Positions 41,791 through 45,926 of a stretch of 64,000 nt of DNA are shown here, one piece after another. A model generated the notes under the pieces. That model worked only from the letters and a program-made list of their open reading frames with translations. It was not told where the DNA came from and did no database searches. Both the position numbers and the translations under genes were made by a program. Source of the stretch: Phormidesmis sp. (GTDB lineage: Bacteria; Cyanobacteriota; Cyanobacteriia; Leptolyngbyales; Leptolyngbyaceae); assembly GCA_965248535.1 (NCBI GenBank), contig CBDFJR010000005.1:1024001-1088000 (forward strand). The letters run 5' to 3'. Positions within the stretch are counted from its first letter, which is position 1. Each line of letters starts with the position of its first letter.

Positions 41791-42090
41791 TCATGAGGCA
41801 CCAAAGTAGGCCGCGCCTTCTGCTTCAATGCTTGCCTTGCTCTTGCGACCGCCATCACCAGATCTTCGTGCAGCCCTGTTCGCTAGACTAATAGGTATAT
41901 CACACCAAATATCTTGCCCACTCTGACTACTCCAGGGTGAAGAACCGACATAAATGTTCTTGCCAATATCAGTTGCATAATACACTCCCTGGGGAACACG
42001 AGCTTGAGCAGGGAGAAGCTCTGAAAATAAAGTAATCGTAGTTACGATAGCTGTAATTGCAATACCCGACACTGAAATCTTTATTGTCAT
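41791..42090 (-). CDS. Hypothetical secreted protein
   Basis: Signal-peptide-like N-terminus ending PAQA. Confidence 0.55.
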   Translation of the reverse strand: MTIKISVSGIAITAIVTTITLFSELLPAQARVPQGVYYATDIGKNIYVGSSPWSSQSGQDIWCDIPISLANRAARRSGDGGRKSKASIEAEGAAYFGAS

Positions 42091-42289: not shown

Positions 42290-42354
42290 TAAGGCTACTT
42301 ACGATCGCACCCCAATGATTCATTCTTAACTACACCCCCAGAGATAACTCAGCA

Positions 42355-42441
42355 GGCTAACGTTCGCAATCACCGGACATCGATAACTCCAGCTACCAAC
42401 TAAATAATATCCAAAGTTCCGGTGCATTGCGGTTGTTGCAC
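42355..42441 (-). other. attC-like integron cassette recombination site
   Basis: Minus strand GTGCAAC-aaccg-CAAT(G)CACCGG...CCGGTGATTG-cgaac-GTTAGCC; 87 bp with an extrahelical base. Confidence 0.75.
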
Positions 42442-42457
42442 TGCTGGCAACACACGC

Positions 42458-42751
42458 TTAGCCAGCTTGAGCCTGGACGACTTCACTCAACGCTTCATCG
42501 ATCACGGCATCACTGACACCACGACGCTTGAGGCTAGCAACCAACGCAGTGACCGTCTCGCTTTCAAACCGTTCCAAATCAACCCGCAAACCCTGACCAA
42601 TGTATGCCCGAATCAATGGCTGGTACCCAGAAAACCCTAACAACGGAGCAACCCGTTTCAGATCTTCCACGACATCTTCTGGAATCCGAATCGTCACACT
42701 GGTCATGGGTCGATTGCGATTAAGTCGTTGCTTCAGGGTCTCAACCTTCAT
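42458..42751 (-). CDS. BrnA/CopG-like antitoxin
   Basis: TSVTIRIPEDVVEDLKRVA...GYQPLIRAYI; overlaps the BrnT end. Confidence 0.8.
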   Translation of the reverse strand: MKVETLKQRLNRNRPMTSVTIRIPEDVVEDLKRVAPLLGFSGYQPLIRAYIGQGLRVDLERFESETVTALVASLKRRGVSDAVIDEALSEVVQAQAG

Positions 42752-43034
42752 AGTCTGCTCTCTCCTGGCTAGTTGCTTTGCGTGCTGAAATAATCCGAAT
42801 GCTCTCTGCATCCTGCTCAATGTGAACCACATAAAGCAAGTTCCAGCGAGCATCTAGCCCAATCACAGCGTCTCGCGCTTCATCGTTGCGACTGGCATCG
42901 ACAAGGAAGAATGGATCGAAAAAAGCCTCAGCCGCCTGCTGAAAAGTAACCCCATCATGATTGATCGGATTAATTCGCGCCTTCTCTTCATCCCACGAAA
43001 AAGTAATGCTATTGAGCACAAAATACACGTTCAT
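42741..43034 (-). CDS. brnT: BrnT-family toxin
   Basis: FSWDEEKA..N...H.GVTF..A...F.DP and IRIISARKAT..ER. Confidence 0.9.
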   Translation of the reverse strand: MNVYFVLNSITFSWDEEKARINPINHDGVTFQQAAEAFFDPFFLVDASRNDEARDAVIGLDARWNLLYVVHIEQDAESIRIISARKATSQERADYEG

Positions 43035-43041
43035 AGTGCTC

Positions 43042-43080
43042 ATCATAGAGAAGACGTATGTACAGTGTCAATACGTCTTC
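43042..43080 (-). promoter_or_regulatory. brnTA promoter with overlapping palindromic operator
   Basis: TTGACA-18 bp-TATGAT on the minus strand; inverted repeat GAAGACGTAT/ATACGTCTTC at 43050-43080. Confidence 0.7.
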
Positions 43081-43128
43081 CTGAAATCTAGGCAATGTCA
43101 ATTGATTGGCACGACCTGAAACGAAGCA

Positions 43129-43214
43129 GCACAACGTTCCCAATTAGCGGCGACAGAGATGACTCAACCGAAGCACGGAAACCCTCTTCGTCCGCTGCAT
43201 TGGGGTTGTTATGC
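43129..43214 (-). other. attC-like site
   Basis: Minus strand GCATAAC-aaccc-CAATGCAGCGG...CCGCTAATTG-ggaac-GTTGTGC; 86 bp. Confidence 0.75.
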
Positions 43215-43383
43215 GTTGCTTGACACAACCGATCGCTGCTTCCACTGCTGCAAGCCGTTCCTCTAAAGAAGTGTTAGTTGCCATTCGAGTTTTCCATAAT
43301 TAATCGTTTTTATCTGAAGGATAATGAGTCAGAGAGAGTTTGCCTATCCTTCAGACTTTGTAAAAGTCTGTACAAAAGAGTTG

Positions 43384-43900
43384 TTATGCTGCGCTTTTGC
43401 ATCTCTCAAGCTTTAGTGCGATGCGAGAGAAACAAATTCCCCCAAACCACAAACAGATTGGCAAATGTCCTTTTGGGGCTGAAGTAGCGTAAATCATATT
43501 ATCAAGATTGTAGTTAACTTGCTTCCATCCAACAGCAATCGCAAATTTAGCCCATTCTGTTTCACGTTTCTCTCCGTCAAGTTTTCCACCAACATCTAGG
43601 TAAATGTTTTTCTGAATGCTGAAACCAAAAAGACCATTGCTGTACTTCACCCACAGTTGGTCAATCGTAAGAAGATCTGTGCAGGGAATTTGGTCAATAT
43701 CTTGCCTGAATATATTCTCATCCCATTGACCGTCTGCCAACCGCCAAGCATCTGAAGGATCTCGTGACCACAGTTTTAAGAGCAGTTGTCTCATTGTCCT
43801 ATCCGCCTCTGACCAGTTTTGTGCCTTAAGTAAATCTCTCAGCCGCGTGTAATCAATTCCTCTGGCTGAACGTAGATTGCCGCGAGAAAGTTGGCTAACA
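43384..43900 (-). pseudogene. GUN4-domain fragment with no start codon
   Basis: In-frame upstream extension LRSARGIDYTRLRDLLKAQNWSEAD, then IPCTDLLTIDQLWVKYSNG.FGFSIQK and APKGHLP. Confidence 0.75.
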
Positions 43901-43984
43901 GTAGCTTTTAATCATCCGCTGCAAGGAGTTTATTATACGGCGGTAGGACATCCTAAGTCGTAAGTTCAAAATAACATTGAGAAC

Positions 43985-44767
43985 CTACTTTGCCAACTCT
44001 TGAGCAATTGTTGTGCGCCAGTAATTCAGCTTATTTGAATCGGTTGGGGAGTGTCCTATCAACTTTTTCCACGCACCACTAGCAGCGCCGCTCGGATGAA
44101 TAAAATTTAGGTGCTTGATACCTAACTGCAATTGGTCTACAGCACTACCAGCTACTTTTCCCCAAGTTACCACAGCAACTGGTTGCACCACAGCTAATTC
44201 TGGTTTGATAAGTTGTAGAAATTTCTGCCGATCGGCATCTGGCAGTTTAATTCCAACATAACGCTGTTCTGGATTACAAACCCATATCTTCAGTAAGTCT
44301 GTTAGGTAAACTCGATATCCTAATTCGAGAAGCACCTGAACCATTTCAAAATATAGTTTTGTACGCCTCAACTCTTCACGAGAGCCTTTGTGGTGTAAAC
44401 CATAAGGTATACCAACTACTAATTGTTCATGGTCGCTGTCATTTTTGGAGTCCTGACCAATAATAGCAATTGTCGGTTTGTCATTTCGTCCATCGTCCAA
44501 TTCCATGAGACTCGGCAAATCCACAGCAATGACAGGAGATTCTTGGTAGATGGATCGAAAAACATCATTTGTGGACTCAAAAAAGCCCCGGCGTGTAAAA
44601 TGCAAAGGCCAACCTGGTTGATCAAAAGTAGTACCAATATCTTGGTACAGCTTCTCTAACTCTTCTATAGTTGTATCAAACACTGAACATAATAATTCAC
44701 AAAGCTGTTCAAATTCTTGAGCTTTGAATTTAGAGAATAAAAGACGTGTTGAAGTTACCATACACAC
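43985..44767 (-). CDS. Uracil-DNA glycosylase superfamily-like protein
   Basis: IIGQD motif A, YLTD..K, VVTWGK.A and HPS motif B. Confidence 0.65.
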   Translation of the reverse strand: MCMVTSTRLLFSKFKAQEFEQLCELLCSVFDTTIEELEKLYQDIGTTFDQPGWPLHFTRRGFFESTNDVFRSIYQESPVIAVDLPSLMELDDGRNDKPTIAIIGQDSKNDSDHEQLVVGIPYGLHHKGSREELRRTKLYFEMVQVLLELGYRVYLTDLLKIWVCNPEQRYVGIKLPDADRQKFLQLIKPELAVVQPVAVVTWGKVAGSAVDQLQLGIKHLNFIHPSGAASGAWKKLIGHSPTDSNKLNYWRTTIAQELAK

Positions 44768-45505
44768 TAATTAAGCTCAAAATCATCCCTGTTGAGATTT
44801 TCACAGTCCTCAACTCAAGGTCAAAACGAATAGCGGCTGATCTCGTGCCTCACAGACAATTTTAGAACATTGCCTAAATAGAGGACATACAGCCGTGTAA
44901 CTACTATTTCTGCCGTTTGAACTCCTATCAAACAGGATAAATACTCCTCTCAAGGAAATTATGCCGTATGGAAACCGGATAACGCCCATTATTTTAGGAA
45001 TTATACTGAATCTCCACAGGATAACTCTCCACTTTTGGATACTTATACGGAATGGCGCTCAGACTTCTCGATTCTAAGGGAGCCGCGAGTAAATTGTCTC
45101 GTCCCGATGAATCAGTTATGGCGCTGAGTCGATCGCATCCCTGCCGTTGCTCGACTGGAACATAAATCAGGGAGAAGTTACGATCGCCCCCCTCTCTTTC
45201 CCCAAAACCCGATCGCCCCTCCTCCCCCAAAAAAATCACCATTCCAAAAAACAAAAAACTCTAGTACAATACACCGCAGTGATGGAGTTGTGCCCCGAAG
45301 CCTGATTTCTCAGATCAGACTCCGAGGTCTTCCATCCCTAGTTAACACGACTAACTCAGGAGGCGTTCATGATTGTACACCGTCGGCTTTGCTATGGGAT
45401 CTTGAAAGGCTGGAATCAAGATCCTGCATACAGGTTTTCCCCCAACCCAATGTCTGAGAGATCCGTGTTTTTGTCCTCTTTAACTTAACTAAGAGGACAA
45501 AAACT

Positions 45506-45877
45506 ATGGCAGTTAGGACGATCGTGCCTAGCTCGATTTCGTTCACCATTGAGTTGCGATGCTCAATCGAAAAGCGATATCGAGTCAGTGTGACGTTAGA
45601 TTTACAAGAGCGTTATCTCTTTGTACCGTCTGGCATTCTCGTGAATGTTAGCGACAGCATTGAAGAGTTTGTCTCAGAACTGAGTGAAATCGCGTCTAAT
45701 CAACTGGCATTTCTGAAATGGGATGGCACGAGTGATTTGACCACAGAGTATCAAGTTGTTCGAGTGTTGCCCGGTTATCAGGTTGAACGTTCTTTAGTGA
45801 AATTCAACATTGTTCTGGGTAGTGGTTCACTGATTCAAGTAGAGGAGTTGCACAACAAAACGACGATTCAACTATAA
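45506..45877 (+). CDS. Hypothetical protein
   Basis: 123-aa ORF with GAGG SD; no family recognised. Confidence 0.55.
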   Translation: MAVRTIVPSSISFTIELRCSIEKRYRVSVTLDLQERYLFVPSGILVNVSDSIEEFVSELSEIASNQLAFLKWDGTSDLTTEYQVVRVLPGYQVERSLVKFNIVLGSGSLIQVEELHNKTTIQL

Positions 45878-45926
45878 GAAGTTGGGCATTAGGGAACTGT
45901 GAAGCAATCCTTGAATAGTCTTCAAG

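Follow-up and report, generated by a model that had tools for sequence, protein, structure and literature searches.

A probable integron cassette array that has lost its integrase in a Phormidesmis genome

Canonical class 1 attC sites (59-base elements) have a central spacer of about 5+6 nt and two extrahelical bases, with G on the bottom strand. Integrons of the Vibrio superintegron type form one large chromosomal array with toxin–antitoxin (TA) cassettes, and TA cassettes are known in large chromosomal integrons. Here we describe a short array in a 64-kb window of a Phormidesmis sp. genome (the window is the whole stretch of DNA that was analysed, C5:1024001-1088000 of the genome under study, G000). 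The array runs on the minus strand from 44900 to 42361. It very probably represents the decaying cassettes of a sedentary chromosomal integron from which the integrase gene, intI, has been lost in this lineage; that is, a cluster of attC sites lacking an integron integrase (CALIN) that has kept an attI-type site. Positions without a contig prefix are those of the window, and G001-G006 denote sister genomes.

The integrons of this genome resemble the Vibrio superintegron type in that a chromosomal locus is conserved across species while its cassette content differs, the attC sites are homogeneous within the genome, and a TA cassette has its own putative promoter. Unlike that type, the arrays here are very small (2-5 attC sites), and there are many platforms per genome, most of them without an integrase, instead of one large array.

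An array counts here as a CALIN if it has two or more attC sites clustered within 4 kb and lacks intI in the vicinity. In the parts of Cury et al. 2016 (PMC4889954) on which we draw, a CALIN is a cluster of attC sites lacking an integron integrase. The same parts state that most CALINs have no recognisable intI pseudogene nearby, that complete integrons are also present in the genomes of about half of them, that attI is not searchable in most integrons, and that integrons in Cyanobacteria had already been noted. A limited literature search returned no paper on integrons in Phormidesmis, and cyanobacterial integron terms led to surveys only. The window array has two attC sites 688 bp apart and non-resistance cassettes, and both intI genes of the genome lie on contig C2 while the window lies on C5; the genome also holds complete integrons, and no intI adjoins the attI-like site and array here. 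The CALIN reading proposed by a first-pass annotation of the window therefore stands, with the amendments that the genome has two intI genes and that the array keeps an attI-like head. Compared with CALINs as described in those parts of PMC4889954, the locus differs in retaining an attI-type junction and a platform-specific repeat. It also differs in that the loss of intI can be dated through a sister species that keeps the gene at the same locus. It is an integrase-less array of a known element type whose retained head and repeat exceed the usual description.

The attC sites and their genomic family

Three covariance models were used: one built from three copies of the palindrome, a further one (R2), and a third, built against circularity, from only the six sites beside intI-1 and intI-2. 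The third was run over the whole window with filters off. The two complete sites are as follows.

42355..42441, minus strand: attC site 1, 87 bp; 72.9 bits (R2) and 57.6 bits, E 3.3e-15 (intI-linked model)
43129..43214, minus strand: attC site 2, 86 bp; 89.2 bits (R2) and 74.8 bits, E 1.8e-20 (intI-linked model)

Judged by their sequence and predicted fold, these palindromes, whose coordinates the first-pass annotation had given exactly, are real attC sites on the minus strand. Both read R''-AAC-L''...L'-AAC-R' in minus-strand order. The R'' and R' boxes are GTGCAAC and GTTAGCC in site 1 and GCATAAC and GTTGTGC in site 2; they match RYYYAAC and GTTRRRY save for one departing position per box. 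The R' G lies at 43135 in site 2 and at 42361 in site 1, which is the final site of the array and places the array end at 42361/42360 (here and below, a slash marks the crossover). A single unpaired G stands in the 5' arm of the gene-coding strand of each site. It was from this extrahelical base that the sites had been oriented with the minus-strand genes, and the covariance scores bear the orientation out, with R2 giving 89.2 bits on the minus strand vs 24.5 on the plus strand for site 2 and 72.9 vs 32.3 for site 1. The intI-linked model, which also upholds the identification as attC, matched 43124-43219 (74.8 bits) and 42350-42446 (57.6 bits) on the minus strand and scored the plus-strand versions of the two sites at 15.3 and 20.3 bits; it found no further significant match in the 64-kb window, where the runner-up reached 13.8 bits.

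As single-stranded DNA, both palindromes folded better than shuffled sequences (-19 to -21 kcal/mol overall, z -2.6 to -3.9, equalled by 0-3 of 200 shuffles). The minus strand of site 1 reached -19.2 kcal/mol (z -3.67; 1/200 shuffles as good) and that of site 2 -21.2 kcal/mol (z -2.77; 3/200). An inverted-repeat finder (9-nt seed, ungapped extension) missed both sites because bulges break the arms, and Rfam at E<=10 held no family for either site. Site 2 shares 83-84% identity with the attC sites at intI-1 and intI-2. The two sites share with class 1 attC sites of the aadA type the imperfect R''-L''-loop-L'-R' palindrome, the RYYYAAC and GTTRRRY boxes, an extrahelical base on the '' arm and a position 3' of the gene, and in both systems the stop codon can fall in R''.

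A strict sequence pattern recovered only 3 copies genome-wide, with one further copy 2.2 kb from an integron-integrase-like gene; the family became visible only with covariance models. Genome-wide, the model built from three copies gave 33 matches at E<=10, of which 28 had E values under 1e-3. Five of these sites lie at intI-2 and one at intI-1, all in the divergent orientation expected of cassettes, and the remainder mostly form clusters of 2-4. Across 34 aligned matches, which include one reverse-strand duplicate and one partial, 91.3% of cells were paired, compared with 24-41% in slid controls; the alignment was fitted to the covariance model, which favours pairing. Changes on both sides of a pair numbered 86, compared with 28.4 in shuffles (0/500 as high). 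In the L box, where 8 of 12 pairs change on both sides and 93.8% of cells are paired, the covariation score was likewise reached by 0/500 shuffles. An open frame of at least 60 aa on the same strand precedes 16 of 28 sites, 7 of 28 flipped sites and 512 of 2000 random positions. The first-pass annotation had named as a refutation palindromes scattered without relation to gene ends. They are not scattered in that way: 26 of 35 matches lie in oriented arrays behind the platform repeat described below, in addition to the 16/28 that follow a same-strand frame.

A search of the genome for intI and further sites had been proposed with the annotation; the genome holds two integrase genes alongside about 30 family sites.

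C2:161487-162425, plus strand: integron integrase gene (intI-1 or intI-2); TIGR02249, 467.9 bits
C2:1131581-1132513, minus strand: integron integrase gene (intI-1 or intI-2); TIGR02249, 466 bits

The cut-off for TIGR02249 is 265 bits, which none of 14 control genomes exceeded. The two integrases are 68% identical as proteins, and tblastn detected no additional intI copy or fragment in the genome. The earlier statement that the array has no integrase is correct for the 64-kb window on C5; it does not extend to the genome, which has two intact intI genes on C2.

An attI-like head, a platform repeat and the missing integrase

Positions 44895-45895, on the far side of the first cassette, are repeated within the genome and the genus and comprise two parts.

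44895..45220, no strand assigned: part A, attI-like head; nine genome copies, ending on the minus strand in ...AAATAGTAG/TTACAC
45220..45895, plus strand: part B, platform repeat of ~670 bp; 17 genome copies, 87-94% identity

Part A makes up the first ~325 bp of the repeated stretch, and its crossover point falls between 44901 and 44900. Within it are repeated GTTATCC motifs and a weak promoter-like site facing the cassettes (TTGATA-17-AATAGT, 44931-44903, 9/12 matches in a consensus scan). All nine genome copies adjoin an attC cluster. When they are aligned, homology is lost in 9/9 right after ...AAATAGTAG/TT, different cassettes follow, and the next bases fit TTRRRY; all 13 copies from four sister species end within 44890-44898. 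Because the copies all end at G/TT before different cassettes, they bear the signature of an attI/cassette junction. The first-pass annotation had described the beginning of the UDG-like unit as a cassette end nearly complementary to its other end. That beginning, GTTACACGGC at 44901-44892, is better described as the attI/cassette junction, with the G at 44901. We infer from this anatomy that part A has the role of attI, and the array would then not be headless; it appears to be a platform that lost intI and not a loose attC cluster.

One copy of part B begins at the intI-2 stop codon, and in four sister genomes part B directly follows intI (G006:C13, G003:C123, G002:C58 and G001:C150, the last frameshifted). 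Twelve of the 17 copies in the genome face an attC array on the expected side within 8 kb, all on the expected strand, and together cover 26 of 35 attC matches. At G002:C37, the first 165 bp of part A are joined to a 3' remnant of intI (its last ~50 codons, which contain an internal stop and share 70-73% identity with IntI-1 and IntI-2), and part B follows. Upstream of intI-1, intI-2 and the intI of G006, the junction regions belong to other sequence types; judged by eye, GGCAGAAA...ATAG/TT recurs both in part A and in these regions of G000 and G006.

In the window, part B adjoins the 3' end of nadE (45927). The orthologous nadE-side locus of G006 has three attC sites, an intact intI (465 bits), part B and nadE, and that of G002 and G005 has attC sites and part B. 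No cassette sequence is common to the window and the nadE-side loci of these three genomes, and in the window the interval from the array to nadE contains neither intI nor a detectable remnant of it. Since part B follows intI elsewhere, G006 has intI at the orthologous locus and G002:C37 preserves the order A, intI remnant, B, we conclude that the platform here was very probably attI-intI-B and that the integrase was deleted. The locus is a clean case, in which within-genome and sister-species comparison allows the junction with the attI-like head, the edges of the cassettes and the disappearance of intI all to be placed to the base.

The nine A-B heads have one common deletion junction and different cassettes. 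This fits insertion of cassettes at orphan attI sites after the head had spread, and it also fits the spread of an integrase-less allele among older platforms by gene conversion. A broader proposal is that the genus has a distributed integron, with about a dozen platforms per genome that each carry an attI-type site and part B, and one or two integrases serving the orphan attI sites in trans. We regard this as rather unlikely. If true, part B would be a so far unrecognised component of the integron platform and not a passenger repeat. Continued use of orphan attI sites in trans would also bear on a question raised in the parts of Cury et al. (PMC4889954) considered here, namely whether CALINs are dead relics or a working genome-wide cassette pool.

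Directly upstream of two part B copies, at C5:797958 and C2:1670292, the sequence matches by eye what lies ahead of the start codon of intI-2, as if the integrase frame had been deleted almost precisely; this would be a second, independent route to the loss of intI. Between the intI genes and their first junctions (C2:160965-161244 and C2:1132765-1132944) lies a common 180-bp stretch that is 100% identical at the two loci; it could be a shared first cassette without an open reading frame (ORF) or the product of recent conversion.

Cassettes and their decay

Read along the minus strand, the array consists of the attI-like head (G/TT, 44901/44900), the UDG-like cassette, the GUN4-like cassette, an orphan piece with attC site 2, and brnT-brnA with attC site 1, ending at 42361. 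Outside the attC sites, the cassette DNA has no second copy in the genome. All features below are on the minus strand.

44900-43899, minus strand: cassette 1, UDG-like, 1002 bp; ends in an internally deleted attC
43985..44767, minus strand: distant UDG-superfamily gene, 260 aa; PF03167 E 0.0054, 17.3 bits vs cut-off 24.3
43893..43941, minus strand: internally deleted attC of the UDG-like cassette; degenerate R'', L'' and R' kept, loop and L' missing
43898 to about 43380, minus strand: cassette 2, GUN4-like; ends in the left 15 nt of an attC only
43384..43908, minus strand: GUN4-like gene; 136-aa form E 2.8e-24, profile 42-125; extended frame E 5.3e-33, profile 2-125 of 141
43380..43394, minus strand: attC left-end remnant of the GUN4 cassette (R'' GCATAAC + AAC); contains the GUN4 stop codon
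43379-43135, minus strand: cassette 3, 165-bp orphan piece plus attC site 2, which is intact
43215..43379, minus strand: orphan piece, 165 bp, two local hairpins; putative cassette tail truncated by deletion
43134-42361, minus strand: cassette 4, brnT-brnA, 774 bp; intact attC site 1
43042..43080, minus strand: brnTA promoter-like site TTGACA-18-TATGAT at 43071-43042; consensus scan, 11/12 matches
42741..43046, minus strand: brnT toxin gene, 101 aa; PF04365 BrnT_toxin E 2.7e-20, 72.9 bits vs cut-off 34.5, profile 1-77 of 77
42458..42760, minus strand: brnA-like antitoxin gene of ribbon-helix-helix type, 100 aa; assigned by weak matches and position; overlaps the brnT end by 20 nt

The brnTA cassette agrees with BrnT/BrnA type II TA systems (PF04365/PF14384) in the full-profile, above-cut-off BrnT match, in having the toxin gene first and overlapping a small gene of ribbon-helix-helix type, and in a palindrome that overlaps the promoter. 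This 15-bp inverted repeat (43050-43064/43066-43080, 87% complementary) lies over the promoter-like site and is likely to be the brnTA operator. Unlike the known systems, the antitoxin here matches the BrnA and CopG models only below their cut-offs: Pfam gave CopG_antitoxin at E 0.002 and BrnA_antitoxin at E 0.0085 (16.9 bits vs 26.1), and NCBIfam gave BrnA at E 0.0069 (16.5 bits vs a cut-off of 60). The nearly complementary ends that the annotation had noted for this unit do exist, and they are simply R' and R'' of the two flanking attC sites.

A second BrnT-like gene (C5:932326-932595, minus strand, 40% identical) lies directly upstream of an attC site at C5:932025-932119, which indicates that TA cassettes recur in the arrays of this genome.

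The product of 43985-44767 appears to be a distant member of the UDG superfamily. At E<=0.001 it has 231 representatives; PF03167 is matched at E<=0.01 by 17 of the 20 homologues that were aligned (best 5.6e-09), and the best solved relative of the protein is a UDG, at only E 0.027. At the end of this cassette, the half-site that had been noted at 43915-43941 is an R''-L'' half, being 16/18 identical to another attC (1/200 shuffles reach this), and is followed by GTTAGCC at 43899-43893, with the R' G at 43899.

In the GUN4-like cassette, the half-site GCATAAC at 43383-43389 is present as reported, and when extended to 15 nt it is 14/15 identical to the left end of the intI-1 attC (0/200 shuffles), which identifies it as a decayed attC left end. 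The right half is without support, since 179 of 200 shuffles were as good. A reading of this end as one long attC of 150 nt rested on 13.5 bits only and was rejected, and the left end alone was accepted. The 10-mer GCATAACAAC occurs 9 times in the genome, compared with about 9.6 expected, and 6 of the 9 lie within attC matches. The GUN4 domain is encoded from about 43870, about 14 codons after the upstream stop, and the frame has no ATG, GTG or TTG between that stop and the Met at 43794. The gene is probably start-less or truncated at its N-terminus.

The 165-bp orphan piece is probably the tail of a cassette truncated by deletion. A 46-aa frame (43284-43144) extends from it into attC site 2, and only the attC-encoded part is matched elsewhere. 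Decay by deletion, as proposed at first reading, is thus apparent in the reduction of two of the four attC sites to remnants that do not fold like attC and in the absent start of the GUN4-like gene.

The UDG-like cassette also occurs in other surroundings in an independent metagenome run, X4, which belongs to another study. Contigs of X4 match this cassette with 16 differences in 833 nt (about 98% identity). They cease to resemble the window at 43899, where the R' G is predicted, and on the other side at 44906, six bases past the predicted junction, beyond which the X4 contig has sequence resembling an attC inner arm instead of part A. The X4 copy of R'' reads ...TAAC where the window has ...TAAT (43932), which fits further decay in the window. 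These contigs are good but not conclusive evidence for the cassette borders. Two other contig joints were considered: one that links 42376 to 43189/43190 across 39 other letters derives from further members of the attC family and not from a deletion; one from 42431 to 44898 (side 20) could not be interpreted.

By analogy with the established integron mechanism, the cassettes would have been inserted one at a time at attI, through IntI-catalysed recombination between attI and the folded bottom strand of the attC of a circular cassette. Deletions have since crippled two of the four attC sites, and the start of the GUN4-like gene has probably been lost. With their attC sites crippled, the UDG-like and GUN4-like cassettes would now be locked in position. 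Only the brnTA cassette, which has an intact attC site on either side, may still be excisable in principle, by IntI-1 or IntI-2 acting in trans. Known TA cassettes further suggest that brnTA, with its own putative promoter and operator, probably acts as an addiction module and protects the array from loss.

Other explanations and further features of the platform

Several observations count against an integron array that lost its integrase in place. The window attC sites are unlike class 1 sites in their unpaired spacer, which is 3+3 nt (AAC/AAC) and not about 5+6, and in having one extrahelical base instead of two, this base being C and not G on the presumed recombining strand. The two attC remnants are not significant window-wide by covariance model (13.5 bits, E 0.32 for the GUN4 cassette; 7.9 bits, E 8.8 for the UDG cassette). 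Neither here nor in the five sister genomes that were inspected does any copy of part A in the genome stand beside an intact intI, and blastx and local alignment found no intI remnant in the part A of the window (best DNA score 28 vs a shuffle maximum of 31). Finally, the X4 contigs are short assembly pieces, and their junctions could partly reflect graph breaks at repeats.

The lack of an intact intI next to part A would suit an explanation in which part A, with part B, is not attI and instead forms the end of a separate mobile element that homes to the GTT of integron arrays, as attC-homing group II introns do. That A and B are multi-copy (9 and 17 copies), that B stands alone at five places without attC, and that ORF-less introns of the attC-homing type exist in this genome (RF02001 and RF01998 matches) agree with it as well. 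Nevertheless, no attC half lies past the far end of B, where the best model match (45845-45892) scored 10.4 bits, E 2.1. Part B directly follows the intI stop in G000 and three sister genomes, part A precedes an intI remnant in the normal divergent orientation at G002:C37, and the motif ending in ATAG/TT is common, by eye, to A and the intI-upstream junction regions of G000 and G006. We consider such an element very unlikely.

Equally, the array could be a fragment torn from a complete integron by chromosomal rearrangement, with no loss of intI in situ. Rearrangement is listed as one origin of CALINs in the parts of Cury et al. 2016 (PMC4889954) used here, and the region to the left of the array (the DUF4336 side) is non-syntenic with the nadE side in G006. 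A torn fragment is nonetheless hard to reconcile with an array that starts at a conserved attI-like junction and not mid-array, whose head is followed by the repeat that follows intI elsewhere, and whose nadE-side locus in G006 has intI where part A sits here; we give it little probability. That the palindromes are a generic dispersed cyanobacterial repeat, a miniature inverted-repeat transposable element (MITE) or transcription terminators, all unrelated to integrons, is already contradicted and has next to no probability, since their position downstream of genes and the wealth of small palindromic repeats in cyanobacterial genomes (e.g., GCGATCGC, seen in the inverted-repeat search) are outweighed by conserved R'' and R' boxes with a variable yet covarying L box, strong strand asymmetry, family members beside both intI genes, and the lack of a T run after the sites, at neither of which the terminator scan lists a terminator.

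We therefore keep the interpretation of an array whose platform lost its integrase. The group II introns mentioned above give Rfam D1-D4 matches in reverse orientation within cassette arrays, with scores of up to 127.8 bits for RF02001 and 63.7 bits for RF01998. They belong to integron 2 and two other arrays, are ORF-less and of the attC-homing type, and three of them score identically.

L004 5435-5807 and 8378-8750, minus strand: group II intron matches (Rfam)
L006 5148-5520, plus strand: group II intron match (Rfam)
L009 8131-8483, plus strand: group II intron match (Rfam)

Rfam found no group II intron match in the 64-kb window. At intI-2 and at the part A head at C2:1675289, the intron-side sequence starts 8 nt past G/TT. 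Sequence common after G/TT to intI-2 and two part A heads was first taken as a shared cassette, and this was rejected: at intI-2 and C2:1675289 it is a backwards ORF-less group II intron and is therefore no evidence of IntI-mediated exchange.

Part B itself contains a promoter-like TACAAT, a conserved leader of ~230 nt, a likewise conserved ORF of 123 aa (45506-45877) and a terminal hairpin. The leader has three hairpins whose stems are kept while the loops vary between copies; Rfam at E<=10 had no family for part B. The 123-aa protein has 413 homologues, all unnamed, and those with a named source are from Phormidesmis. It had no match in Pfam, NCBIfam or PADLOC and no usable match in the ESM Atlas, and its AlphaFold2 model had a mean pLDDT of 39.7. 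The copies of part B with no attC within 8 kb are the following.

C5:1167559: solo part B
C5:1266469: solo part B
C5:1399285: solo part B
C5:2345002: solo part B
C2:1727267: solo part B

The left flank of the copy at C5:1266469 resembles, by eye, the 3' end of a tRNA gene. Just past the last attC of the window array lies a 99-aa ORF (41791-42090, minus strand) with a hydrophobic N-terminus, for which we found no family match and of which the genome contains no paralogue. It could represent native DNA or else an old cassette that lacks attC.

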